This document shows positions 3,811 through 23,753 of a DNA stretch of 64,000 bases, piece by piece (the stretch's first letter is position 1; the number at the start of each line of letters is the position of its first letter). This stretch comes from an uncultured Rhodospirillaceae bacterium (GTDB lineage: Bacteria; Pseudomonadota; Alphaproteobacteria; UBA9219): the NCBI GenBank assembly GCA_964517415.1, contig CAZFCA010000001.1:54969-118968 (forward strand), given 5' to 3'. The notes under the pieces were generated by a model that saw only the letters and a program-made list of their open reading frames with translations, did no database searches and was not told the origin of the DNA. A program made the translations under genes and the position numbers.

Positions 3811-4641
3811 ATGACCTCTTTCCCCAAAAAATTAGCCTTTGTATTGAGCTTTGCCCTTATCGCCTTCGCGTTTACGGCGCCTCCCGCCGAAGCGCACAAA
3901 AAGAGCTATAAGCACACGCATCACGTAGCCAAGAAGAAGAAAGGCAAAGCCGACGCTGAAACGATCATGATCGTGAAACGGGCGCAGCAACATTTGGCGC
4001 ATTTGGGGTATTATGTCGGCAAGATCGACGGGATCATGGGGCCAGCCACAAAAACGGCTATTAAAAATTTCCAGCGCGATAAAAGCCTGAAAGCCAGCGG
4101 CGCTTTGGATAACAAGACAAGGCTTGCGCTGGAGGAAGCGGACAACATCATCCTGCCGCGCAAGGAATCCGGCGCGGCGCTTCCTGCGCCCAATCCGGCC
4201 GATATGCAGCCTGCGCAGGATTTCGAAGCCCCGCTTAAAGGCGGCTCTAAAGTCGTTTCCTCCCGCTATGCGAGTTTGGATGTGGCCGAAACGGGGCAGG
4301 GCGCCGATAAACGCTACGCCGTGAACCTGAACGGCCAGCCCATCCTTCTTGCGGAAGGTCAACCTTCGGTAGTCGGCATTTCGACGACCTACAATCTAGG
4401 CGAGGAGGATGCCGTTATATTCACAACATTCAGCCCTAACGAGGATGGCTGCACCTATAAGAATCGCGTTCTCGCCATGAAGGGCGGGGAACACAAACTG
4501 CTCGATATCGATAATTGCACGCGAAATTATCAAGCCTTTGTCGATAGGGGTTCCTTGTATATCGTTTTCCCCGAACGCGATGATAACCGCCCCGTCGGCG
4601 CCACATGGCGGCTTGAGGGTATCTCTTTGAACAGGCTTTAG
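3811..4641 (+). CDS. Secreted protein with peptidoglycan-binding (PG_binding_1-like) domain
   Basis: Signal peptide (LAFVLSFALIAFAFTAPPAEA). The segment LGYYVGKIDGIMGPATKTAIKNFQRDKSLKASGALDNKTRLAL matches the PG-binding repeat consensus. C-terminal domain unknown. Confidence 0.55.
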   Translation: MTSFPKKLAFVLSFALIAFAFTAPPAEAHKKSYKHTHHVAKKKKGKADAETIMIVKRAQQHLAHLGYYVGKIDGIMGPATKTAIKNFQRDKSLKASGALDNKTRLALEEADNIILPRKESGAALPAPNPADMQPAQDFEAPLKGGSKVVSSRYASLDVAETGQGADKRYAVNLNGQPILLAEGQPSVVGISTTYNLGEEDAVIFTTFSPNEDGCTYKNRVLAMKGGEHKLLDIDNCTRNYQAFVDRGSLYIVFPERDDNRPVGATWRLEGISLNRL

Positions 4642-6604: not shown

Positions 6605-8040
<1,436 letters not shown>

Positions 8041-11034: not shown

Positions 11035-11796
11035 ATGCGACAAAAAATCCTCGTTCCTGCCCTTGTCCTGTCCCTTGCGGGTTGCGCGCAATTCGACGCG
11101 ATGTTTTCGCAGACGCCGACGCCTTCCGACTTTCCCGATGTCAAGGCCGCGCCGGTGGAGGCCGTGCAATCCGGCGAAAAGGGTTCCCGAGCAGGGGATA
11201 GCCTGCCCAATATCGATATTCCCGCAGCCAATTTGCACGGCGTTCCGGTAACGGCCGCATTGCAAGCCGTTCTTTACGGCACCGACGTTCCCCTTTCGTG
11301 GGACTCCAAGATGATGGCGCCCCACCCAGTCACGCTTATGAACCTGAAAGGCGATCTGCCGACCGTGGTGGATAAAATCTGCACTGCCGCCAACGTTTCA
11401 TGCGCCTATCGCAGCGGCGTTCTGGAAGTTGCCGAAAAGCAGGCTTTTGCCGAACCGCCCGTTTCGGCTCCGCCTCCGGCGCCGATTCTGACGCCTCCGC
11501 CTCCACCGTCACCCCCTCCTGCGCCTCCGCCTCCGCCCGTGATGCCTGAGCCTGTTGCCGAACCGAAGCCCCAGCCGCGGATGGAGGTTCCTATTCTCGC
11601 TCCGCATCCATCCCTTAAACCTATGAGCGACGAATTGCCGCCCCCCATCCTAATCGACAAGGATGGCGCGCGCCCCGTCGCGCCCCAAAGAAAGCCGGAC
11701 CGCGTATCTTCCCTCGACAGAAAAGTTATGAGTTTAGGCACGATTTCCAAGGACGATTTGACGACCGAAGCCTCAGGAAGGGGGGGGCGGCCATGA
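11035..11796 (+). CDS. Lipoprotein with STN/secretin-N-like domain and proline-rich linker (first gene of uncharacterised envelope operon)
   Basis: Lipobox LSLAGC. LHGVPVTAALQAVLYGTDVPLSW...VTLMNLKGDLPTVVDKICTAANVSCAYRSGVLEV resembles an STN domain. PPPAPILTPPPPPSPPPAPPPPP linker. Confidence 0.5.
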   Translation: MRQKILVPALVLSLAGCAQFDAMFSQTPTPSDFPDVKAAPVEAVQSGEKGSRAGDSLPNIDIPAANLHGVPVTAALQAVLYGTDVPLSWDSKMMAPHPVTLMNLKGDLPTVVDKICTAANVSCAYRSGVLEVAEKQAFAEPPVSAPPPAPILTPPPPPSPPPAPPPPPVMPEPVAEPKPQPRMEVPILAPHPSLKPMSDELPPPILIDKDGARPVAPQRKPDRVSSLDRKVMSLGTISKDDLTTEASGRGGRP

Positions 11797-12908
11797 TGCG
11801 CTTTTCAGCCTTTGTCGCTTTTATGGTTTTGGCTTTCCTCGGCGGGGAGGCTTTAGCGCGCGACGCAGCTTTTATGCCGCCCGAAATGCCGTCGGTAAAA
11901 AAAGAGGAGCCGAAGAAAGAGGAACCGAAGAAAGAGGCTATCGCCCAGGCCCTTCCGGCGAAGGAACAGCCCGCCAAAGCGCCGCCGAAGGAAATCAAGC
12001 CCATCAATTTCGGGACTGCCGTTATAGGGGAGAAGGTTATTCGCGCGACGATGCTGGTCAACGACAGCGCGGACCCCATCGCCATCCGCTCGATAGAAAT
12101 GATCTCGCCGGACAACGGCTTGCAGCGTTTAAGCCAAGGGTGCGTTATCGGAAAGCCCATTGCGCAAGGCACTTCATGCCCCGTTATTTTGCAATGGGAG
12201 CCGAAAAAAGCCGGAACGCTTTCCACCGATCTTGTGATTCACCATAGCGGGAAGGTCGGCTTTACCGTTATCGCCGTGCGCGGCGAAGCGAAAGAAAAAG
12301 CGGATCCGCCCGCAGTGGCACCCGCTCCGGCGCAAAAGGAAGCGGTGGTTTCAACGCCCGCTCCTGCGCCTGCGCAGCTTGAGATAACCGCCCCTGCAAC
12401 GCCCCCGACCGTCTCTCCGTCCGAGCCTTTAAAGGAAATCGCGGTTCCTGCGCAGCAGCCTGCCGCGCCAGCCGCTTCTCCTGCCCAACCGGAGGCCAAA
12501 ATTGAAGCCGCGCCCGCGCCTTCGCTGGAAACTAAAAAGGCGGCGGCTGCTCCCGCGCCTGTTTTGCCGCGCAAACTGGAATTTCATAAATTGGAAGAGC
12601 CCAAGGCGAAGAAGATCGTGGCAGCGGCGGGAATCGACGGCGTTCTGTTGATCGGCACTGTCGGCGATAGGGCTATCTTCCAACTGCCTGAAGGCTATAC
12701 GGCCGTCATTCCCGTCGGCGGGACGCTTCAAACGAAAGCGGGCGGGGCGAAGCTGGTCGCCGTTACGCCCTATGCGGCGGAATTCGTCGTCAAGGGGCAG
12801 GAACGAACCGTTCTTTTGAAAGGGGGCGAGGCCACAGCCGATCCAGCCAAGCCCACGAAGCAGAAGAACGCTTCGCGGCATCCTAAAAACAAGAAAAAAG
12901 GGAGATGA
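11793..12908 (+). CDS. Secreted protein: KKEEP repeats, Ig/ASH-like beta-domain, Ala/Pro-rich linker, C-terminal PilP/GspC-HR-like domain
   Basis: Signal peptide. Start overlaps the upstream stop (ATGA). C-terminal IDGVLLIGTVGDRAIFQLPEGYTAVIPVGGTLQTKAGGAKLVAVTPYAAEFVVKGQERTVLLKGG resembles the PilP/GspC HR beta-sandwich. Confidence 0.45.
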   Translation: MMRFSAFVAFMVLAFLGGEALARDAAFMPPEMPSVKKEEPKKEEPKKEAIAQALPAKEQPAKAPPKEIKPINFGTAVIGEKVIRATMLVNDSADPIAIRSIEMISPDNGLQRLSQGCVIGKPIAQGTSCPVILQWEPKKAGTLSTDLVIHHSGKVGFTVIAVRGEAKEKADPPAVAPAPAQKEAVVSTPAPAPAQLEITAPATPPTVSPSEPLKEIAVPAQQPAAPAASPAQPEAKIEAAPAPSLETKKAAAAPAPVLPRKLEFHKLEEPKAKKIVAAAGIDGVLLIGTVGDRAIFQLPEGYTAVIPVGGTLQTKAGGAKLVAVTPYAAEFVVKGQERTVLLKGGEATADPAKPTKQKNASRHPKNKKKGR

Positions 12909-13864
12909 TAAGGGGGGCGATGAAGAAGCTAGCCGAAAAATTACGCGCCTTGACGGGGCCCGTTGACGAGGCAGCGAACATCTATTTCCCGGGCGATCTT
13001 GTGGGCGGATTTTGCGCCCGCACAGAAGGCGACGAACCCCGCCTTGTTTGGAACGCCGCGACCGAAGCCTGCGGCAGCGAGCGCGTGGTGGTCGCGTGGC
13101 GAAGCGTCGGCAACGGCATTTGGTATTTGGCCGCCAAGTCCGAAGATCTGGCATCGCACGTCCATTCCTGGTGCCCTTTGGCGGCGTTGCTGCCCTCGGA
13201 AAAAAATAAGACGATACTGCCCGTTTGTTATACTCACTACGGAACCTATTTCGGCGAGGATATCGCTCTTTTGATGGTCGTGAAGCCGAACGATTTGCGC
13301 ATCTATCGCAGCACGCCCGTCATTATCCGCGCCAAGGCCGAACGTACGGCGCGGGAATTGGGCGAAGGCACGAAGATCATCGATATCGATCTTGCGCGCA
13401 TTGAGCGAATGACTCCGGCGCCCTGGCGCTCAATGTCGCTTTTTGAGGATCGCGCGCGGCGAATTCTCTCGGCGTTTTCGGTTTTCGCGTCTTTGGCAGT
13501 CGCCGGCGCGGCTTTTGCGGTTTGGCTTTATGCGCAAGTCGATATCCTGTCTTCGACGCGCGCCAATGACAGGGCTGAAGCCCGCTCGGCGGGTATCGTG
13601 GCAAGGGCTGAGGATCTGCGCGTAAGTCCTTTGCGGCGCGAACTTAAGAATCTTTTGGACGTGAACGAAGGCGTTTTATCCGTGGACGGCTATTTGTCTG
13701 TTTACGAACTTCAAGAAGGCGCCGTCCGGTGGCGCGCTTCAGCTCCCGCAGGAACGGATGCGGCGCGGCTTGCCGCGTTTAACGCGAAAATTATCGAAGC
13801 GGGCGATGCCGCCCTTTTGATCGGCAACGAGGCCGAGTTTCAAGCCAGCCGGAAGGAACCATGA
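12905..13864 (+). CDS. Bitopic inner-membrane protein: about 190-aa cytoplasmic domain, one TM, about 100-aa periplasmic domain (GspL-like architecture)
   Basis: TM ILSAFSVFASLAVAGAAFAVWLYA. Translationally coupled on both sides. No recognisable motif. Confidence 0.4.
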   Translation: MIRGAMKKLAEKLRALTGPVDEAANIYFPGDLVGGFCARTEGDEPRLVWNAATEACGSERVVVAWRSVGNGIWYLAAKSEDLASHVHSWCPLAALLPSEKNKTILPVCYTHYGTYFGEDIALLMVVKPNDLRIYRSTPVIIRAKAERTARELGEGTKIIDIDLARIERMTPAPWRSMSLFEDRARRILSAFSVFASLAVAGAAFAVWLYAQVDILSSTRANDRAEARSAGIVARAEDLRVSPLRRELKNLLDVNEGVLSVDGYLSVYELQEGAVRWRASAPAGTDAARLAAFNAKIIEAGDAALLIGNEAEFQASRKEP

Positions 13865-14349
13865 ACGCGCTGAAAAACAGCATGGCAGCCAGAGCCTTTT
13901 CGCCGAGCCTTATCGCGCGGGGATTGACCAGCTTTGACAGGGCGACGGGTTTTCTGGTCGCTTTGTGCTGGGTCGCCGCTTTTGCCATGCTGATTATGGC
14001 CGATATCGCCGTTCATCGCGCAGCGTCGCTGTCCAACGCGGGGGCAGGCGGGGTCGAGGTCGTTTCCTCAGCCATGAGCCCTGATGAGATCCAGCCTGTT
14101 TTCGAGCGTTTGAAGCAGCGTTTTCCCGAGCTTAAAGTATCGCTTGACGAGAGCCAAAAACTTCACATCGCAAGCCCCGAAGGCGCAACTTTCCAGCAAT
14201 GGGTGGCCGCTCTTCAGGCGGTGGAGACCATCGCGCCACTATTCTATTGGAGTATAGACGCCCTTTGCGTCGGGCAGTGCGGGGAGCGCGGGTTGATGAG
14301 CGCTGTTATTGCGGGGCAGAAGAAGGAATTTACGGCGCTGAGGGATTAA
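13861..14349 (+). CDS. Small bitopic membrane protein (GspM/PilO-like architecture)
   Basis: Single TM FLVALCWVAAFAMLIMADIAV followed by about 100-aa periplasmic domain. Start overlaps the upstream stop. Confidence 0.4.
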   Translation: MNALKNSMAARAFSPSLIARGLTSFDRATGFLVALCWVAAFAMLIMADIAVHRAASLSNAGAGGVEVVSSAMSPDEIQPVFERLKQRFPELKVSLDESQKLHIASPEGATFQQWVAALQAVETIAPLFYWSIDALCVGQCGERGLMSAVIAGQKKEFTALRD

Positions 14350-14508
14350 AACGCTTATTGTTTGAATGGGTCAGATTTTTTTTGCGAAGGGACGGTTTGG
14401 GTGATTGGGACAAAAAAATTATGTTTACTTGTTTCCTCATCAATCCCGTCCACCCCAACGCCATCAAGGGGGAGGGTTTCGCTCTATGATGTTGAGTGAG
14501 GTGCATAA

Positions 14509-15201
14509 GTGGCTAAGGAACATATAGAAGATCATGCTGATAAGGGAATCGAGAAAACCGCAAAATTAAATGAAAGCAAAAAACGCCATTCCATCGTCGG
14601 TCCAGTTCTTTTTATTATGGCGGTTTTAGCGATTTTGGCGGCTGCCGTTGCGGCGATGACAGGGACTCCCAAGGGTGCGGCGTTTGAAGGTGTAAACCGC
14701 GCGAAGGCGCTCGCCCTGCTCGGCGCGGGAGAGTCTCTTAAATTAGGCATAGATCGCGTGACGCTTGGCAACGGCCTTCGCGCCGCGGATGTCGATCTAA
14801 GCGTCGGGGCGGGGGAAAATCAGCTTTTTTCTCCAGTCGGGGGCGGTATCGCGCCGCCGTCCGTCGGCATGGCGAATAATCCTATGGCTGATAAATGGCT
14901 TTATCCGAAGGGTATCGTCGTTGGGCTTGGGCTGGGAACGAATAGGGCCATGCTTGCCGTTTTGCCTGTGTCGTCGGGCGTGTGCGCAGAGGTGAACGAG
15001 AAAAGTACAGGAACTCCGTTCGTTCCCGAAAAGTCGGATTTAGGGGATTTTGCTGCAGGCGTCGTTTCCGCCGCCTATGGCGCGTGGCCTGCGCCGATTG
15101 CGTCGAGCTTTGCGGGATGCGTGCAAAACGCAAGCGTATCCGTAGGAGAAGAGGGACCTACTTCGGCATACTTTTTTTATCAGGTGCTTGCGGTGCAGTG
15201 A
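14509..15201 (+). CDS. Membrane-anchored periplasmic protein, Gly/Ala-rich; possibly last gene of the same operon
   Basis: N-terminal cytoplasmic tail, TM IVGPVLFIMAVLAILAAAVAAM. 160 bp gap from the previous gene, so its operon membership is uncertain. Confidence 0.35.
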   Translation: MAKEHIEDHADKGIEKTAKLNESKKRHSIVGPVLFIMAVLAILAAAVAAMTGTPKGAAFEGVNRAKALALLGAGESLKLGIDRVTLGNGLRAADVDLSVGAGENQLFSPVGGGIAPPSVGMANNPMADKWLYPKGIVVGLGLGTNRAMLAVLPVSSGVCAEVNEKSTGTPFVPEKSDLGDFAAGVVSAAYGAWPAPIASSFAGCVQNASVSVGEEGPTSAYFFYQVLAVQ

Positions 15202-15379
15202 TGATCTGTGATCAGTGCGCCCTGCGAAATACAGACGGCCACGCTATAAGAAATGTCCGTTAGGATTGTTCCTGCTTCCCCGTCTCTGTTAACACTGATA
15301 ACCGCTTTCTGCTGCCCTTGCCTCCCAGCCTTTTTTCGCGTATTATCGGGCACAATGTTCAATTATTGTGCTTGTCAAC

Positions 15380-17323
15380 ATGGAAAATACAGTATCCAGC
15401 GTAGCCGCGCGCCTCGTTTCTCCCGATGGCGTCAAAGGCTCTACCCAGCGCAGCGTGGATGCCTTGCTGTCCCTCCAAAAGCCGGATGGCCACTGGGTGT
15501 TCGAGCTTGAAGCCGACGCCACGATTCCGGCCGAGTATATTTTGCTCGACCACTTTTTAGGCTCGATCAATCAGCCGTTGCACGAACGCATGGCCGCGTA
15601 TTTGCGCGATATTCAAGAGTCTCATGGCGGCTGGCCATTGTTCCATCGGGGGGATTTGGATGTCAGCGCGAGCGTCAAAGCCTATTTCGCGCTGAAATGC
15701 GTGGGCGACACACTCGATGCGCCGCACATGGTTCGCGCGCGCGAGGCCATTTTAAGCCATGGCGGCGCGGAAAAAACGAACGTCTTTACCCGCATTCAAA
15801 TGGCTTTGTTCGGCGCCGTGCCATGGCGCGCCGTGCCGGAAATGCCGGTCGAGATCATGCTTTTGCCCAAGTGGTTTCCCTTCCACATGAACAAAATCGC
15901 CTATTGGTCGCGCACGGTCATCGCGCCCTTGCTTGTGCTGATGGCCAAAAAGCCGCTGGCAAAAAATCCGCGCCATATCCGCATCGACGAGCTTTTTCTC
16001 ACGCATCCCGAAGCCGTTAAAAAATGGCCCGGGAATGCGCAGCCTTCCATATGGACTTTCGCCTTCGGCGTTATCGATAACATCCTGCGCGCGCTGGAAC
16101 CGCGCATGCCCAAAAAACTTCGCGCCAAAGCCATTGCGCGGGCGGTGGCGTGGGTGACGGAACGGTTAAATGGGGAGGATGGGCTAGGCGCGATTTACCC
16201 GGCCATGGCGAACAGCGTGATGATGTACGATTGCCTCGGCTTTGCGCCGGATCATCCCGATTACGCCATCGCCCGCAAATCGATTGATAAATTGGTTGTG
16301 GATACGCCTCAGCGTTCGTACTGCCAGCCGTGCCTTTCGCCCATTTGGGATACCGCTTTAGCGGCGCATGCGCTGTTGGAGGCGAACGCCCCGCGCGAGC
16401 GCATCGCGGCGGCCTGCGAATGGCTGAAGGCGCGGCAGGTTCTCGATCTGAAAGGCGACTGGGCTTTTTGGCGACCTCATGCCGTTCAGGGCGGCTGGCC
16501 GTTTCAATACAACAACGCGCATTACCCCGATTTGGACGATACGGCGGTCGTCGTTATGGCGTTGGATCGCTTCGACCGAGTGAAATATCGCGAGTCGATT
16601 GAAAGAGCCGTGGAGTGGGTTTTGGGCATGCAGTCGAAAAACGGCGGCTGGGCCGCTTTCGACGCCGATAACGAATATTATTATCTGAACTACATTCCCT
16701 TTGCCGATCACGGCGCGTTGCTCGACCCGCCAAGCGCGGACGTCACGGCGCGGTGCGTCAGCATGCTAAGCCAGCTTGGCTTCCAAAAGGACCATCCTCA
16801 AGTGGCGGAGGCTATCGCCTATCTGCGGCGCGATCAGGAAAAGGAAGGCTGCTGGTTCGGACGGTGGGGAACGAATTATATTTACGGCACTTGGTCTGTT
16901 TTGTGCGCGTTGAACGCCATTGGCATCGGGCCGGAAGACCCCATGGTTCGCCGCGCCGTGGAATGGCTGAAGGCAAAACAAAGGCCGGACGGCGGCTGGG
17001 GCGAAGACGGCGCAAGCTATTGGCGCGATAAGCCCAAAGGCGAATGCGCCGTCAGCACGCCCGCGCAAACGGCATGGGCTTTGATTGCGCTTATGGCGGC
17101 GGGCGAGGTTGACAGCGCGCCTGTCGAGCGCGGCGTCGCGTGGCTTTCGGAAACACAAAAGGCCGACGGCACATGGGACGAAGACTATTACACGGCCGTG
17201 GGCTTTCCGCGCGTGTTCTACCTTCGCTATCATGGATACAAAGCGTTTTTCCCGCAGTGGGCGCTGGCGCGGTACGCTAATTTGAAATTCGGCAATGGCG
17301 CGCCATCGCTTTATGGGATGTAG
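15380..17323 (+). CDS. shc: Squalene-hopene cyclase
   Basis: DxDD motif (DLDDTAVVVMAL), multiple QW repeats, about 650 aa. ORF-track alt start at 15368; first ATG at 15380. Confidence 0.95.
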   Translation: MENTVSSVAARLVSPDGVKGSTQRSVDALLSLQKPDGHWVFELEADATIPAEYILLDHFLGSINQPLHERMAAYLRDIQESHGGWPLFHRGDLDVSASVKAYFALKCVGDTLDAPHMVRAREAILSHGGAEKTNVFTRIQMALFGAVPWRAVPEMPVEIMLLPKWFPFHMNKIAYWSRTVIAPLLVLMAKKPLAKNPRHIRIDELFLTHPEAVKKWPGNAQPSIWTFAFGVIDNILRALEPRMPKKLRAKAIARAVAWVTERLNGEDGLGAIYPAMANSVMMYDCLGFAPDHPDYAIARKSIDKLVVDTPQRSYCQPCLSPIWDTALAAHALLEANAPRERIAAACEWLKARQVLDLKGDWAFWRPHAVQGGWPFQYNNAHYPDLDDTAVVVMALDRFDRVKYRESIERAVEWVLGMQSKNGGWAAFDADNEYYYLNYIPFADHGALLDPPSADVTARCVSMLSQLGFQKDHPQVAEAIAYLRRDQEKEGCWFGRWGTNYIYGTWSVLCALNAIGIGPEDPMVRRAVEWLKAKQRPDGGWGEDGASYWRDKPKGECAVSTPAQTAWALIALMAAGEVDSAPVERGVAWLSETQKADGTWDEDYYTAVGFPRVFYLRYHGYKAFFPQWALARYANLKFGNGAPSLYGM

Positions 17324-17325
17324 AC

Positions 17326-17967
17326 ATGCTAGGAATTCTCTGCGGCCTTGAATCCGAAAGAAAAATCGCCAGGAAAATCGACGGCGCGTTGGTGTCTTGC
17401 GCGGCGGCAAGGCCGCATATGGCGCGTGAATTGGCGCGGGAGCTTGTGGCGCTCGGCGCCACGCGCCTGATGAGCTTTGGCATCGCAGGCTCGCTGGAGC
17501 CTTCCGTGAGGCTGGGCGATGTTTTTATCGGCACGCGGGTTGAGAACGACAAAGGCCGCTGGGAATGCGACGAAGCATGGGGACGCGAGCTTGCGATGAA
17601 AATTCCGCATGCCAAGCGCGGCGGCATTTACGGCTCCGAAGTTTTGGTCGCGACGTGCGAGGCGAAAAGCGCGCTTTTTCGGGGTACGGGATGCGCTATC
17701 GTCGATATGGAAAGCCAATGCGCGGCCGAGGCTGCGGCGCAGGCAAAGCTGCCTTTCACCGTCATTCGCGCGGTGTGCGACGACGCCGGAATGAACGTGC
17801 CGCCCTTCGTCATGGCGGCGATTAATCCCGATGGCAGCACGAACGTCCTTCGCGCGATGGCGCATCTGGCGATGCATCCTTCCCATACGCGGGATCTGTG
17901 GCATGTCATCGGCGGCATGACCCGCGCTTTAAGGGAGCTGAAGGGCATCAGAAATAGTTTAGCATAG
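17326..17967 (+). CDS. hpnG: Hopanoid-associated phosphorylase/nucleosidase HpnG (PNP/UDP family)
   Basis: Immediately follows shc. PNP_UDP_1-like sequence (GIAGSL, VDMESQ). Confidence 0.8.
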   Translation: MLGILCGLESERKIARKIDGALVSCAAARPHMARELARELVALGATRLMSFGIAGSLEPSVRLGDVFIGTRVENDKGRWECDEAWGRELAMKIPHAKRGGIYGSEVLVATCEAKSALFRGTGCAIVDMESQCAAEAAAQAKLPFTVIRAVCDDAGMNVPPFVMAAINPDGSTNVLRAMAHLAMHPSHTRDLWHVIGGMTRALRELKGIRNSLA

Positions 17968-18434: not shown

Positions 18435-18875
18435 AGCAGTATCAGTTCAGATAAAAGGGATTCAGACTGGCTATCGGAAGATATGACGGTTAGTTATTCG
18501 CAGCGATCAACGAATGAGTGACAGGCAAGTCCTCCATCCATTAACCATGCCCAAAAAATATTTTTACATACTCCCAAAATAAATCTTGCATTTATCCCAC
18601 ACGTGTGATACATCCCACCCTGCATCCTCACGAGGGATGCTGATTATGCGGCTCGTCACCCAGCCAAGCCCAGGGATTGCGGGAACAGGGGAACCGATAA
18701 TCAAAGGCACGTTTGCTCAGCGGCTTTCGCTTGCGCGAAGCTCACATGTGAAACCTGTCTTATTTTTAATAGAGCTTATAAGGAGCTTGTTTTGAAGAAA
18801 GAATATGAAGGATAAAAACAAAATGAAGTAAATCCGACAGAAACACCCAAAGATATTATAATAACCCGCTCTCTT

Positions 18876-18960
18876 GGTTGTCATTCCGCAACCTGTCACT
18901 CACTCGTATAAAGAATGTTTGAGTATTATGAACAGCGATTGGCGAGTGAGTGACAGGTGT
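18876..18960. repeat. Inverted repeat (arms ..TTCCGCAACCTGTCACTCACTCG / CGAGTGAGTGACAGGTGTGCGGAA..) with about 35-bp spacer; related copies at 9305-9330 and 18515-18535
   Basis: Read directly from the sequence. Member of a TGTCATTCCG.AACCTGTCAC-type short repeat family. Confidence 0.5.
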
Positions 18961-18974
18961 GCGGAATCCAGGCG

Positions 18975-19200
18975 TCATCGCCATAAAAAATGTCAGCGCG
19001 GATTATTCCCGCCGCCAACGCACGCCCAAATTTTTGCCGCCATATTCTACGGAAAGTCAGCCTGGATCCCCGCCTTCGCGGGGATGACGTCGTTATTATT
19101 GAGCGGGAAGTACTCTGCCCGATGATGACGTCGGTATTATTGCAGGACAGTTCTTTGCCCGATGATGACTCTGCTATTATGGACAAAGCGGTTCTTCTAT
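18975..19200. repeat. Intergenic repeat element sharing sequence (AATGTCAGCGCGGATTATTC; REP; GTTATTATTG; TTTGCCCGATGATGA) with the 44.43-44.86 kb intergenic region
   Basis: Direct comparison of the two regions. Both lie between convergent genes. Confidence 0.55.
19056..19089. repeat. REP/MITE-like palindromic unit GTCAGCCTGGATCCCCGCCTTCGCGGGGATGACG
   Basis: Core ATCCCCGC-N6-GCGGGGAT palindrome with a CAGCCTGGA flank. Family members at 35168, 35213, 44522, 44703, 46535, 47698 and 55233. Confidence 0.7.
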
Positions 19201-19260
19201 TCCCCGAATCCACAATCAAGAATGTTCGATCCCTAGCCCCTAACCCCTAATCCCCCGACC

Positions 19261-20643
19261 TCAGTCTCTTAGCCACTCCGCGAAATCCCTTTTTGCCCTT
19301 TGCGTATAAAGCAGCTTCCTGTCGCGTTTGCCTTTGCCTTCGGTTATGGGCGGGAAAAGGCCGAAGGCGACGTTCATGGGCTGGAAAGTCTGCGCGTTTG
19401 CATCGCCTGTAATATGCGCGACAAGCGCGCCCATGGCCGTTGTGCGCGGCGGGGCGGTTCGCGTTTCGCCTTTGCGCTCGGCGGCGGCGAACAAGCCCGC
19501 CAGCAATCCCATGGCGGCGGATTCCACATAGCCTTCGACTCCCGTCATTTGCCCCGCAAAGCGAAGATGCGGCCTGCTTTTCAGGCGCAGTTGTTCATCC
19601 AGCAAAAGGGGACTGTTGATGAACGTGTTACGATGCAGCCCGCCAAGGCGGGCGAATTCCGCGTTCTCTAACCCGGGGATCATGCGGAAAACGCGCGTTT
19701 GGTCGGCGTATTTCATTTTTGTCTGGAAGCCGACGAGATTATAAAGCGTGCCCAGCGCGTTATCCTGCCGCAGTTGCACGACCGCATAAGGCCGCTTGTC
19801 CGAATGCGGATTGGTAAGTCCCACAGGCTTCATGGGGCCGTAGCGCAGAGTATCGAGGCCGCGCTCCGCCATCACTTCGATAGGCAAACAACCATCGAAA
19901 TATTTAATTATGTTGCCGCGACTGCTCTGCGCTTCGCGCAACCGCGACTGCGGTATTTCCCAGTCTTTAAATTCCGTCTTTTCCGCGTTCAAAAGTTCGC
20001 GCACGAAGTGTTCGTACTGTTCCTGATCCATCGCGCAGTTGATGTAATCCGCGCCCGTGCCTTCGGGCCCGACTTTGTCGTAGCGCGATTGCATCCATGC
20101 TTTTGACATATCAATGCTCTCGCGCACGACAATGGGCGCAATGGCATCGAAGAAGGAAAGAGAGTCCATGCCCGCGGCCTCGCGGATGGATTCCGCCAGC
20201 GGTTCGGAAGTCAAAGGGCCGGAAGCGATAATGACGGAATCCATGTCGGCGGCAGAGGGCAGGGCGGTGATTTCCTCCCGCGCAATTTTAATAAGCGGAT
20301 GCTTTTCAAGCGCGGCGGTAATATCGGCGGCAAAGGCTTCGCGATCTACGGCCAATGCGCCTCCGGCGGGGACTTTATGCCGATCCGCCGCCGCCATGAC
20401 AAGAGAACCGCAGCGCCTCATTTCGTCATGCAAAAGGCCTACGGCGTTGTAGTCGCTGTCGTCGGAACGCAGGGAGTTGGAGCAAACCAATTCGGCAAGC
20501 GCATTTGATTTATGCGCCTCGGTATTCTTATGCGGGCGCATTTCATGCAAGACGACCGGAACGCCTGCTTGCGCGGCCTGCCATGCCGCCTCGCAGCCCG
20601 CAAGCCCGCCGCCGATGATGTGGATGGGAAGTATAGTGGTCAT
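19261..20643 (-). CDS. trmFO: Methylenetetrahydrofolate--tRNA-(uracil-5-)-methyltransferase TrmFO (Gid)
   Basis: N-terminal FAD motif [16 protein letters not shown], 460 aa, TrmFO-type rather than MnmG (too short). Confidence 0.9.
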
Positions 20644-20834
20644 TATTTCCTAAGCGAAAAAATGGGACCCCCGCCTGCGCGGGGTGACGGTTGTTCCTTT
20701 TAAATGGGCGCTGCTCCACAGTTAAGAAACCAAATCGGATTCCGCATCCCCGCCAATTGTGCCATCAACACCATTCAACCTTTCAAAGAACTTCTATAGG
20801 CACAATAGGCGGGGTGCGGAATGACGCTAAAATC

Positions 20835-21242
20835 TTACTCCAGCCCCTTATCGTGCAGTTTTGGTGTAAGGGAAACAATAACGGCCAAAATAACCGCATA
20901 AGCGAAAAAAGTAACAGGCCTAACGCCCAGCATGAAGGTGGCAAAGGCGCAGGAGAATGCGGTTATGAGTTCAATGGCAAAATAAGCCTTGCCGATTTCG
21001 GCGCGGCAATGGCGGCATCGGCCTTTCAGGTAAATCCACGAAAACAGGGGAACAAGGTCGATCACGCCGAGCTTCGCGCCGCATGAAGGGCAATGCGAGC
21101 GCGGCTTGATAAGCGATAGTTTGCGCGGCAGGCGATAGGCGAGCATCGTCCCGAAGCTGCCCAGAATGCCGCCGATCAAAAAACCGAAGAATAGGCGAAA
21201 CCATGTTTCGTCATAGAAGGGGTGCATTCCATAAATCATCAC
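20835..21242 (-). CDS. Truncated type IV prepilin peptidase: N-terminal zinc-binding (DiS-P-DiS) domain only, A24 aspartyl-protease domain absent
   Basis: CPSCGAKLGVIDLVPLFSWIYLKGRCRHCRA is the tetra-Cys PilD N-domain motif. The ORF stops about 135 aa in, with only 190 bp before trmFO. ATG overlaps the GT4 stop (ATGA). Confidence 0.6.
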   Translation of the reverse strand: MMIYGMHPFYDETWFRLFFGFLIGGILGSFGTMLAYRLPRKLSLIKPRSHCPSCGAKLGVIDLVPLFSWIYLKGRCRHCRAEIGKAYFAIELITAFSCAFATFMLGVRPVTFFAYAVILAVIVSLTPKLHDKGLE

Positions 21243-22906
21243 TGTGGCCTTTCCACCGAACAAATACCCATTTTCAACATCCACCCGAAGCAGCGCATTA
21301 AAAGATCGTGGCTGGAGATCGGGAAGGCGACAAGGATATCGGCAATGCGCACCCTTCCCGCGCGGCGGATGACCCCGCAAAGCTCGACCAGCTGATCTTT
21401 CGGCAGCAAAAGCTGCGGCACGAAAAGATTGATGTCGTGATTCAAAATGGTTTGAACGAACGCCTCGCTTTGCGTTGAATGCAAAATATCCATGGGCGCA
21501 AGATGCGCAGTGGGAAAGCTCTTAAACATCTCCCACGGGTTAGGGTACGCCGGATGCGCGGCCTGCCACGCGTTAGGCAATATCTGCCGTGGCGGCGCGG
21601 CAAGCCGCTTTTCCGAAAGGCTTTGCCAAAGCTCATCATAAGCATGGATGATATGCCGCCAATCGAAAACGCTTTGCGCGCGCGCGCGGCCGCTTTCGCC
21701 GAACGTGCGGCGCAAATCTGGATTGCCTATCAAAACCGCGAGCGATTTCGCGCACCATTCGACATCGACAGCCGTGCTTTGCGTAGACGCGGCCAGAGCG
21801 ACGCCGTAGTTATCCTCGTTATAATAAAACTTTGCCACATCCATGCCTGCGGATGGCGGCGGCGTGAACGTGGGGATAAGGAATCCGTCTTGCCCGTTGC
21901 GAACCCCCTCGCGATAGCCGTCCCAGTCAGAAATAACGGCCGGAAGGCCGCAGGCCATCGCCTCGATAGGCGTCAGGCCGAAACTTTCCTGCACATTATC
22001 GGATAGGGACGCGAATATATCCGCCGCCGCCCAAAGGCCGTCGGGAAAGCGCGGATCGTCGTTCATCACGAATTCGACCTTCGCCGTTTTGCATATATCC
22101 GCCGCCAGATTGCGGAAAAACGGCTCCATATCCTTCGGCAGGAAATAGCCGTAAAGGACAAGGCGCACTTTTTTCTGCGTCAGCCATGCCGCATGCTCGG
22201 CCGCCAAAAACAAGGGCAGGGGATGCGCCTTGGTGGCGAAACTCAGCCTGCCGACGAAAAGGATAACCGTTTCGTCCTCATCGACTCCCAAGGCTTCGCG
22301 CTGCGCCTTTCGTTTCGTGCCGCCGGTCGCTTTTGCGAATTTATCGGTGTCGATGCCCAGCGGAATGATCGGCGTTTGAATGGGGCAGGAAAATGAGCCG
22401 CCGAAACGGTGATTGATATACTCGCAGTTGATGTTCCAAAGATTTAAAACGGCGTCGCGGATAGAGGCCGAAGGGCAGATAAGCGCGTCGGTTTCGTCCG
22501 TCGGCGCGAAGCATAAATCCCCAACCGCGCGGGCGATGCGCTCGCCGCTCATCGTGTGCACAAGGCCGCAGGTGGCATAGCCGCGCCCCTGAACTTGCGG
22601 CCGGCGCCACGCCAGATCGACCGTCAACGGATCGGGACGGAAAAGGCACGATATGCTTTGCAGGTTTTTATCGGGATGGCGCGGATCAAGCCCGATGCAT
22701 CGGTTCTCGGCATCTATGCCCTCGGCCGCTGCGAGCTCCTTAAAATGGTCGAAACTGGGAATATCCGTCGGGCGGCAAAGGAATTGCGGCGACGCGCTGT
22801 GGCGGAAGTAGGCCTTGAGGAAATTGGTCACGGCGACGTCGAAGCCGAAAACCTGGCTGTCGTTTTGTCCCGATGCGGGGCGGCTATATTGGATGCAAAC
22901 GCTCAT
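21239..22906 (-). CDS. Glycosyltransferase family 4 (GT-B, group 1) protein with N-terminal extension
   Basis: C-terminal EX7E-like region GLTPIEAMACGLPAVISDWDGYREGV. 555 aa. Confidence 0.8.
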   Translation of the reverse strand: MSVCIQYSRPASGQNDSQVFGFDVAVTNFLKAYFRHSASPQFLCRPTDIPSFDHFKELAAAEGIDAENRCIGLDPRHPDKNLQSISCLFRPDPLTVDLAWRRPQVQGRGYATCGLVHTMSGERIARAVGDLCFAPTDETDALICPSASIRDAVLNLWNINCEYINHRFGGSFSCPIQTPIIPLGIDTDKFAKATGGTKRKAQREALGVDEDETVILFVGRLSFATKAHPLPLFLAAEHAAWLTQKKVRLVLYGYFLPKDMEPFFRNLAADICKTAKVEFVMNDDPRFPDGLWAAADIFASLSDNVQESFGLTPIEAMACGLPAVISDWDGYREGVRNGQDGFLIPTFTPPPSAGMDVAKFYYNEDNYGVALAASTQSTAVDVEWCAKSLAVLIGNPDLRRTFGESGRARAQSVFDWRHIIHAYDELWQSLSEKRLAAPPRQILPNAWQAAHPAYPNPWEMFKSFPTAHLAPMDILHSTQSEAFVQTILNHDINLFVPQLLLPKDQLVELCGVIRRAGRVRIADILVAFPISSHDLLMRCFGWMLKMGICSVERPQ

Positions 22907-23012
22907 GGAGGGAAAATTTATGGCACGAGGCCGCGATGTTCACAATATATTCTTGCGCGGTAGAGGCGTTTAGCCGATCCTTGTTTTCCGAAACGATTCG
23001 GAGATTTATCAA

Positions 23013-23753
23013 ATGAGCGCCCCTTTTGTTGATGCCGGATTGTCGCCCGAATTCGCGGCCAATCTGGACGTTTTTTTTAAAATCGTCATAGGCTTTTTCC
23101 TCGGCCTTTTGGTGGGGTACGAGCGTTCCTATCACGGCCGCGCCGCCGGCATGCGCACTTACGCGCTCGTTTGCATGGCCTCGTGCGCCATCGTCGCGAT
23201 ATGCGGCGATATGGGGATTTGGTTCGGCGGCCTGGGGCAGGATTTCGCGAAATACGCCGATCCGGGCCGTGCGATTCAGGGCATTACCACGGGCATAGGC
23301 TTTTTGGGCGCGGGCGTGATTATGCGCGACGGCCTTTCCATCAGCGGCCTAACGACGGCCGCCTCGATCTGGGCGGTTTCGGCCATCGGCGTTCTGGTGG
23401 GCGTTGGCTTTTATGGAGCGGCTACGTCGCTTTCCATTTTGCTGGCGATGATCATGATGTGGGGCGCCAAGATCGAAAATATTTTGCCGATACGGCATGC
23501 GGTTTCTGTCACATTGATTTTCCACAGGGATTCTTCACTAACTCAAGATGACGTGAAGCATCTGATGAATTCGCAAGGCTATGAAGTCGCCAATGGTTCG
23601 TTCTGCATCACGCATAGGGGCGGCCAGACGGAATGGCGCTTTGTCGCGGTTTCAAAAGGCAAGAGGAAAAGCACGCCTTTGGTGAAATTAAGCGAAAGCC
23701 TTCATAAAACGCGCGGCATTCAGGATTATACCATCGTCCATGCGCGGAATTAG
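23013..23753 (+). CDS. mgtC: MgtC/SapB family membrane protein
   Basis: GFFLGLLVGYERSYHGRAAGMRTYALV is the MgtC signature. C-terminal ACT-like soluble domain. Confidence 0.75.
   Translation: MSAPFVDAGLSPEFAANLDVFFKIVIGFFLGLLVGYERSYHGRAAGMRTYALVCMASCAIVAICGDMGIWFGGLGQDFAKYADPGRAIQGITTGIGFLGAGVIMRDGLSISGLTTAASIWAVSAIGVLVGVGFYGAATSLSILLAMIMMWGAKIENILPIRHAVSVTLIFHRDSSLTQDDVKHLMNSQGYEVANGSFCITHRGGQTEWRFVAVSKGKRKSTPLVKLSESLHKTRGIQDYTIVHARN

Follow-up and report, generated by a model that had tools for sequence, protein, structure and literature searches.

The stretch of DNA analysed here is a 64,000-nucleotide (64-kb) window of contig CAZFCA010000001.1 from the assembly GCA_964517415.1 of an uncultured Rhodospirillaceae bacterium. 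On its minus strand it carries a short gene for a protein matching the N-terminal domain of PilD-type prepilin peptidases (hereafter the A24_N protein), directly downstream of a gene for a glycosyltransferase of family 4 (GT4). A sequence-only reading had flagged an open reading frame (ORF) at 20835..21380 (minus) as a prepilin peptidase reduced to its N-terminal domain. This ORF is present, with 181 residues when read from a TTG at 21380, but the gene itself starts further in, at the ATG at 21239..21237. We set the start there because the same gene model was found in three independent assemblies with an identical locus (L004-L006), because the N-termini of homologs line up with this Met, and because GGAAAGG, which resembles the Shine-Dalgarno consensus and lies within the 3' end of the GT4 gene (21248..21254, minus), is 8 nt 5' of the ATG. 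The 47 codons between the TTG and the ATG are another frame of the GT4 3' end. The resulting coding sequence (CDS), 20835..21239 (minus) including its stop codon (20835..20837), encodes 134 residues, and is backed by a Pfam PF06750 match as well as by the gene models of L004-L006.

The GT4 gene (21239..22906, minus) encodes 555 residues comprising a GT-B core and a conserved C-terminal extension of ~125 residues. The sequence-only reading had noted that the start of the short gene overlaps the GT4 stop, and the sequence bears this out: the GT4 stop codon (21241..21239) and the A24_N start codon form a TGATG junction (21237..21241, minus), in which the first base of the start codon is the only base shared by the two genes. 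In the relatives L003, L007, L108 and L109 the junction is a 4-nt ATGA overlap.

Residues 21-102 of the A24_N protein matched the Pfam family A24_N_bact (PF06750; IPR010627) with an E-value of 5.6e-29 and 100.5 bits against a cut-off of 23, and the match spanned positions 1-82 of the 84 in the profile. NCBIfam returned only a sub-threshold match to the TIGR04104 zinc-finger (23 bits against a cut-off of 45), and a PDB sequence search with the A24_N family profile gave spurious CTCF zinc-finger matches only and no solved structure with the domain. The tetra-Cys domain of PilD, already recognised in the sequence-only reading, is formed by C50-P-S-C53 and C75-R-H-C78, which lie 21 residues apart to give the motif CXXC-X21-CXXC. 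In Pseudomonas aeruginosa PilD this motif binds zinc, and N-methylation depends on it whereas cleavage does not (PMC3584216). Methylation has also been tied to a Gly and a basic residue at the third Cys (PMC3584216, citing Pepe and Lory 1998), and the N-terminal domain of PilD has been called the methylase domain (PMC10191384). In the A24_N protein G73 and R74 precede the third Cys (C75); G73 and the four Cys are invariant in the A24_N family and in 107 canonical PilDs, and residue 74 is mostly Arg or Lys across the family, occasionally His, and Tyr or Leu only in single members. The tetra-Cys loop of the A24_N protein would thus be expected, from its motif, to bind zinc.

An AlphaFold2 model of the protein (predicted local distance difference test score, pLDDT, of 77) has three helices, at residues 7-39, 84-104 and 108-129, rather than the two membrane helices counted earlier, with the Cys loop between helices 1 and 2. 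Predicted membrane helix 1 (residues ~13-35; 21135..21203, minus), which falls within the AlphaFold2 helix 7-39, holds G23, G27, S28 and F29, all common to the A24_N protein and canonical PilDs. The tetra-Cys zinc-ribbon loop occupies residues 46-83 (20991..21104, minus). Predicted membrane helix 2 (residues 84-104; 20928..20990, minus), placed by AlphaFold2, holds the invariant Y86 and E90, and AlphaFold2 places predicted membrane helix 3 at residues 108-129 (20853..20918, minus). Because the loop between helices 1 and 2 has 11 Arg/Lys residues (the positive-inside rule) and because the same loop is cytoplasmic in PilD (PMC3584216, PMC10191384), the Cys loop probably faces the cytoplasm, the compartment of the soluble GT4.

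The peptidase half of PilD is missing from the locus altogether. The Pfam search of the A24_N protein gave no match to Peptidase_A24 (PF01478), and the 134-residue protein stops, as had been proposed, before the catalytic aspartates: its end coincides with the alignment column of the first catalytic Asp of canonical PilDs (position 127), a position that is not conserved in the A24_N family. D130 was considered as a relic of this Asp and rejected, as it falls three residues away from the canonical column and lacks conservation across the family. Downstream, a spacer of 191 bp (20644..20834, minus) separates the A24_N stop from the start of trmFO (19261..20643; GIDA family match, E=5.9e-97). We built a PilD hidden Markov model (HMM) from 68 PilD-type sequences of 235-300 residues among the profile matches and ran it, with filters off, against six-frame translations of the window. 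Only HMM positions 5-120 were matched, only at the A24_N gene (E=1.9e-50), and nothing significant was found for the peptidase half in any frame of the 64 kb. The spacer has no A24 coding potential by this search, in agreement with the earlier statement that some 190 bp could not encode the catalytic part, and, with trmFO 191 bp downstream, a frameshift correction cannot restore an A24 domain. To judge from its sequence, the A24_N protein descends from a prepilin peptidase/N-methyltransferase of the PilD type; the protease has gone and only the methylase module is left. It fails as a prepilin peptidase: A24 domain and catalytic Asp are both lacking, and the sequence searched around it shows no pilus setting. 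The description as a reduced prepilin peptidase was right as to ancestry but misleads as to function; nothing links the gene to pilins.

Short proteins of this kind form a family of their own. A search of 5.8 billion proteins returned 31 relatives of the A24_N protein, ~25 of which were A24_N-only proteins of 97-135 residues with 47-93% identity. A profile built from diverse members brought up at least 55 clusters of 97-182 residues that outscored every canonical two-domain PilD; each of these clusters derives from metagenomes or metagenome-assembled genomes (MAGs) with the label Alphaproteobacteria, Pseudomonadota or Rhodospirillaceae, and the majority carry the annotation "prepilin peptidase". 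When 1.84 billion cluster representatives were searched with a profile and without filters, 19,519 relatives came up, and since just 21 of these were at E<1e-30 we regard the A24_N clade as small and distinct. It is found so far only in uncultured Alphaproteobacteria.

The genes of this clade are maintained. The 36 non-redundant GT4-linked A24_N CDSs encoded 123-137 residues (one with a low-complexity tail) at 40-93% identity, 22 positions were invariant among 23 diverse members, and the reading frame was intact in every locus examined. The ratio of non-synonymous to synonymous substitution rates (dN/dS), estimated by the Nei-Gojobori method (NG86), was 0.13-0.31 for the closest pairs, with a median of 0.34 over 269 pairs with dS<2. 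The A24_N gene is under purifying selection. The sequence-only reading had left the choice between a decayed pseudogene and a stand-alone domain protein; the dN/dS values, the retained residues described below and the homologs of the same length in dozens of independent contigs lead us to reject the first and support the second.

We compared residues between 38 A24_N family members and the 107 canonical PilDs, taking as conserved any position with at least 80% identity in the canonical set. All 24 canonical conserved positions between residues 23 and 105 were kept in the A24_N family (G23, G27, S28, F29, R36, P38, R39, S42, S48, C50, P51, C53, D61, P64, S67, G73, C75, R76, C78, I82, R85, Y86, E90 and G105). 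The only canonical PilD residues missing were the first catalytic Asp and those beyond it. The family also has signature residues of its own, at G19, L26, T31, M32 and A100. The complete retention of the N-domain residues suggests that the protein is more than a passive anchor.

Longer relatives bear on how the short form arose. The best scoring of these, P0041 (251 residues), P0046 (264 residues) and P0049 (243 residues), share the family signature GSF-x-T-(M/A/L)-(L/I)-S-(Y/H)-R-(L/M)-P-R, in brief TML-x-YRLPR, and differ from the window protein in retaining a membrane C-terminal half. The PilD profile can still be aligned with these C-terminal halves. All three have the first Asp (V/IDLE), but the GXGD aspartate column is occupied by Asn, Ala or Ser, within W-F/L-rich segments; P0041 had no Pfam Peptidase_A24 match. 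The genes of P0041 and P0046 each follow the same GT4 immediately and overlap it by 4 nt, that of P0046 within an hldD-hldE-GT4 unit (L109). Full-length homologs had been named as a possible sign that the short gene model was wrong. Longer forms of 243-264 residues do exist, but they have lost the GXGD Asp and occupy the GT4-linked slot, and the gene model stands. Because P0041 and P0046, with their dead peptidase half, sit in this slot, the comparison suggests that loss of the protease came first and truncation later. In the simplest history, a PilD-type gene would have joined the GT4 operon, its protease site would then have decayed with the N-domain constrained throughout, and the dead peptidase half would finally have been deleted in most lineages, that of the window included.

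Other departures from the canonical form were seen among PilD-like proteins. In our alignment an Asp was lacking at one or both catalytic columns in 24 of the 68 PilD-like cluster representatives of 235-300 residues, and although some of these may be alignment errors, PilD-like proteins with a dead peptidase seem widespread outside the GT4-linked clade. One protein of 378 residues (P0082) combined A24_N and a partial Peptidase_A24 with a class I methyltransferase domain of the RMKL/UPF0020 type, and P0039, P0060 and P0063 had two tandem A24_N domains before the peptidase. Such architectures are unusual for PilD, though they are possibly fusions made in gene calling.

The association with the GT4 was surveyed from both sides, in 13 A24_N-anchored loci (one genome per species) and in 80 GT4-anchored loci from Joint Genome Institute (JGI) metagenomes, the latter being evaluable where the GT4 identity was at least 50% and enough downstream DNA was present. 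A GT4 lay directly upstream of A24_N in 10 of the 13 genome loci, and A24_N lay directly downstream of the GT4 in 23 of the 25 evaluable metagenome loci; the same order was found in L025-L027, L108 and L109. The pair occurs in two neighbourhoods that are unrelated to each other. The first, that of the window, has a divergent mgtC followed by GT4-A24_N-trmFO, with GT4s at least 69% identical to the window GT4. The second has hldD-hldE-GT4-A24_N facing a convergent alaS, with GT4s 50-65% identical to that of the window, and it may be the older of the two. The HldE and HldD assignments were above the NCBIfam cut-offs (TIGR02198, 364 against 345 bits; TIGR02199, 195 against 181.5; TIGR02197, 393 against 274.6). 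The products of hldD and hldE make ADP-L-glycero-beta-D-manno-heptose. In the 64 kb of the window there was no HldE or HldD match at E<1e-8, and the upstream neighbour of the GT4 is the divergent mgtC. That the pair outlives a complete change of neighbours, from mgtC and trmFO to hldD-hldE and alaS, supports a coupling of GT4 and A24_N. Co-expression of the two genes, which the sequence-only reading had suggested, is supported more strongly than that reading could show, by their adjacency in both neighbourhoods and by the frequent 4-nt ATGA overlaps; in this clade the translation of A24_N is usually coupled to that of the GT4.

The partner GT4 matched Pfam Glycos_transf_1 (E=3e-21) and has the GT-B fold and the EX7E motif. 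It has a standard soluble GT-B fold and no predicted membrane helix. Against NCBIfam equivalogs of the WaaG, MshA, BshA and PimA type it scored far below cut-off in every case (best 65.9 bits against 302), and WaaG was a weak PDB sequence match (E=1.9e-6). More than 120 orthologs of 548-560 residues were found, down to 51% identity and with a mean column identity of 69%, and the JGI metagenomes contained 417 relatives. The C-terminal extension is marked by the motifs PNPW..F..FP, H.MN.F.P.LL and R..GW.LK.G. Transfer by GT4 enzymes usually proceeds with retention of the donor's anomeric configuration, the ADP-heptose transferases known from lipopolysaccharide (LPS) belong to GT9, and our literature search found no GT4 heptosyltransferase. 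For these reasons the enzyme may act on a heptosylated acceptor, by analogy with WaaG, rather than transfer heptose itself.

A large sister clade of GT4s (L057-L107, many of them marine) has neither A24_N nor hldDE adjacent; among the genes beside it are lrp-type regulators, infA, aceE and nfu-like genes. In one locus (L065, 2530..2826) a degenerate A24_N-like ORF of 99 residues, with the third Cys replaced (RGRARCCG), was found near a GT4 of 43% identity and an hldD-like gene. This ORF is possibly a copy in decay, from the margin of the paired clade.

No homolog of PilB, PilT, PilC, PilM, PilN, PilO or a stand-alone A24 peptidase was found in the window or in 107 other loci, 0.98 Mb altogether, using single-sequence queries from L010; the 107 loci exclude the pilus cluster of L010/L011. 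That cluster is instructive in itself, as L010 (MAG GCA_050261415.1) has a genuine split PilD. It belongs to a distant subgroup, its A24_N being 40% identical to the window protein, and the A24_N ORF (148 residues, 4144..4590) lies between pilC and pilM with a Peptidase_A24-only ORF (217 residues, 6900..7553) after pilO. The split PilD of L010 implies that the A24_N module can work as a separate polypeptide, there in an obvious pilus setting, which the window gene does not have.

We lean slightly towards the interpretation that the A24_N protein is an inner-membrane partner of the GT4 in an ADP-heptose-related envelope glycoconjugate pathway, such as that of the LPS core, an interpretation drawn solely from genomic context. 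In this role it would be embedded in the inner membrane, act on the cytoplasmic side and process no pilins. Its zinc-ribbon loop might dock or activate the soluble GT4, or the N-domain chemistry that it may have retained, a methyl transfer dependent on S-adenosylmethionine (SAM), might act on the product of the pathway, and these two modes are compatible. We infer the physical or functional partnership, the methyltransferase activity and the nature of the glycoconjugate.

Several observations weigh against a partnership of this kind. An A24_N gene without an adjacent GT4 was found in three loci, two of them with the order mgtC-A24_N(-trmFO) and no GT4 (L020, 1147..1545; L024, 2572..2763) and one with A24_N between an ABC-2 transporter and obg (L021, 5893..6315), so that retention of the protein is not strictly dependent on a GT4 in cis. 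Conversely, the GT4 was without A24_N in two loci (L028 and L045), and ~50 sister-clade GT4 loci (identity of 45% or less) were also without it except for the degenerate copy in L065, from which it follows that a membrane anchor is not intrinsically required by these enzymes. The A24_N-paired clade has just 8 GT4 residues of its own, and three of them fall in the linker 444-456, a weak hint, from sequence comparison, of an interface but too little to define one. Finally, adjacency through overlapping codons can persist by inertia alone.

The alternative to which we give most weight, though we think it on the doubtful side, is that the protein is a stand-alone SAM-dependent methyltransferase acting on a new substrate, whether a lipid, a membrane protein or an amine of the GT4 product, and that its link to the GT4 is metabolic and not physical. 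This would overlap with the partnership set out above. It draws on the retention of all conserved PilD N-domain residues, including the Gly and basic residue before the third Cys, on a degree of conservation that exceeds the needs of a passive anchor, and on the description of the domain as a methylase domain (PMC10191384). We consider it quite unlikely that the protein is instead one half of a split PilD that would act in trans with a separate A24 peptidase on type IV pilins or pseudopilins, its position beside the GT4 being a historical accident. Split PilDs exist, and the A24_N of L010 is a recognisable relative at 40% identity, yet the GT4-linked members were never near pilus genes in the 0.98 Mb of flanks, their adjacency to the GT4 outlives the complete change of neighbourhood, and the GT4-linked clade scores apart from the split-PilD subgroup. 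The sister forms, moreover, have a peptidase half of their own in which the GXGD Asp has been lost, and this is sensible only if cleavage is dispensable.

A decaying pseudogene of a truncated prepilin peptidase is very improbable: the protein does end at about the point where the peptidase half should start, and the long relatives show that decay of that half did happen, but dN/dS values of 0.13-0.31, a length of 123-137 residues over 36 loci, 22 invariant positions and intact frames are at odds with decay. Nor is the constraint due to gene overlap, as one base of the start codon is all that is shared with the GT4. That an assembly error or a frameshift conceals a full-length PilD here is scarcely credible: nothing was found in its favour, and against it stand the identical gene model in three independent assemblies, trmFO 191 bp downstream with no A24-like coding in any frame, and the same short architecture in dozens of unrelated samples.

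A more far-reaching interpretation than the GT4 partnership, and one that we regard as unlikely, is that the PilD methylase module has been reused outside type IV filaments as the membrane-embedded recognition or methylating subunit of an unrecognised glycosylation system at the cytoplasmic face. In such a system a distinctive GT4, supplied by dedicated synthesis of ADP-heptose, would modify a lipid or the N-terminus of a membrane protein bound by the PilD-derived subunit, and the system would have arisen by pseudo-enzyme evolution, with a dead peptidase followed by truncation.

Our literature search found no account of stand-alone A24_N, DiS-P-DiS or truncated PilD proteins, nor of a link of such proteins to a GT4. 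The closest known system is the PilD/XcpA/OutO/PulO family (MEROPS A24A; IPR010627 plus IPR000045), with which the window protein shares a homologous N-module, the CXXC-X21-CXXC motif, the predicted topology and the 24 conserved residues. Unlike these enzymes it is without the peptidase half, which amounts to five of the eight helices, both catalytic Asp residues and GXGD; its gene accompanies a GT4, joined in relatives by ADP-heptose genes, rather than pilus or type II secretion system (T2SS) genes; and it has the residues G19, L26, T31, M32 and A100 and a short PPPFD-like N-terminal extension. Prepilin peptidases without a methylase domain, TadV, CpaA and FlaK, indicate that the halves of PilD are separable (PMC10191384). 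These are the mirror image of the window protein, being peptidase only where it is N-domain only. The split PilD of L010 resembles it in having A24_N as a separate ORF but differs in its setting, pilB-pilT-pilC-[A24_N]-pilM-pilN-pilO-[Peptidase_A24], which has no GT4. Outside the PilD relatives, Alg13/Alg14 pairs a cytoplasmic GT-B enzyme with a small membrane partner that makes up half of the GT-B fold. By analogy, a soluble GT-B enzyme is here encoded with a small membrane protein that could potentially recruit it, although there is no homology and the window GT4 is complete in itself.

The remaining features of the window lie around the pair. In the spacer before trmFO, at 20657..20684 (minus), a perfect 6-bp GC hairpin (CCCCGC-GCAG-GCGGGG, 20669..20684) is followed after 6 nt by a run of six Ts (20657..20662), 14 nt from the start codon of trmFO. 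This element might serve as a weak terminator, or as an attenuator, separating the GT4/A24_N pair from trmFO. A consensus terminator scan did not call the hairpin at 20669..20684, and a promoter and terminator scan of 19100..23200 gave counts at chance level. Some 1.2 kb between trmFO and an hpnG-like gene has no convincing ORF and contains short repeats (18490..19180), namely a perfect 16-nt inverted repeat (18891..18906 and 18943..18958) with a related copy at 18510..18525, and three repeat units ~40 nt apart at 19068..19180. Rfam gave no match in 18490..19180.

At 15368..17967 (plus) a squalene-hopene cyclase gene (651 residues) is followed, with overlapping stop and start, by the hpnG-like gene (PNP_UDP_1). 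On account of these two genes the host probably makes hopanoids. We dropped them as a functional link to the pair, since among the relatives only the closest, L001, has them next to it; L003, L007 and the hldDE clade do not. Directly upstream of the cyclase are five consecutive ORFs of 253, 371, 319, 162 and 230 residues (11035..15201, plus), the first four with overlapping stops and starts. Neither Pfam nor NCBIfam gave a significant match for any of the five. A lipoprotein-like LAGC signal and a Pro-rich region mark the product of the first ORF, that of the second is rich in Pro and Ala, and the other three are bitopic membrane proteins. Together they may form an uncharacterised envelope-spanning module. 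We rejected the idea of a pilus-like system, as neither Pfam nor NCBIfam supports it and genes of the PilB or PilC type are absent from the window.

These findings have a practical consequence, in that the proteins behind dozens of "prepilin peptidase" labels in MAGs cannot be peptidases, and neither pili nor a T2SS should be inferred from them. The partner GT4 is an uncharacterised but widespread alphaproteobacterial enzyme with a link to ADP-heptose. For decades it has been unclear what the N-terminal domain of PilD and the N-methylation of pilins are for (PMC10191384), and the locus offers a natural separation of function, in which the N-domain of PilD stands alone, constrained and fully conserved, in an operon unrelated to pili. 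If methylation has been retained, the 134-residue protein would be a minimal system for this chemistry and would point to a new class of substrate. If it has not, the domain would have a second function in binding or scaffolding, possibly one that it also performs inside PilD.

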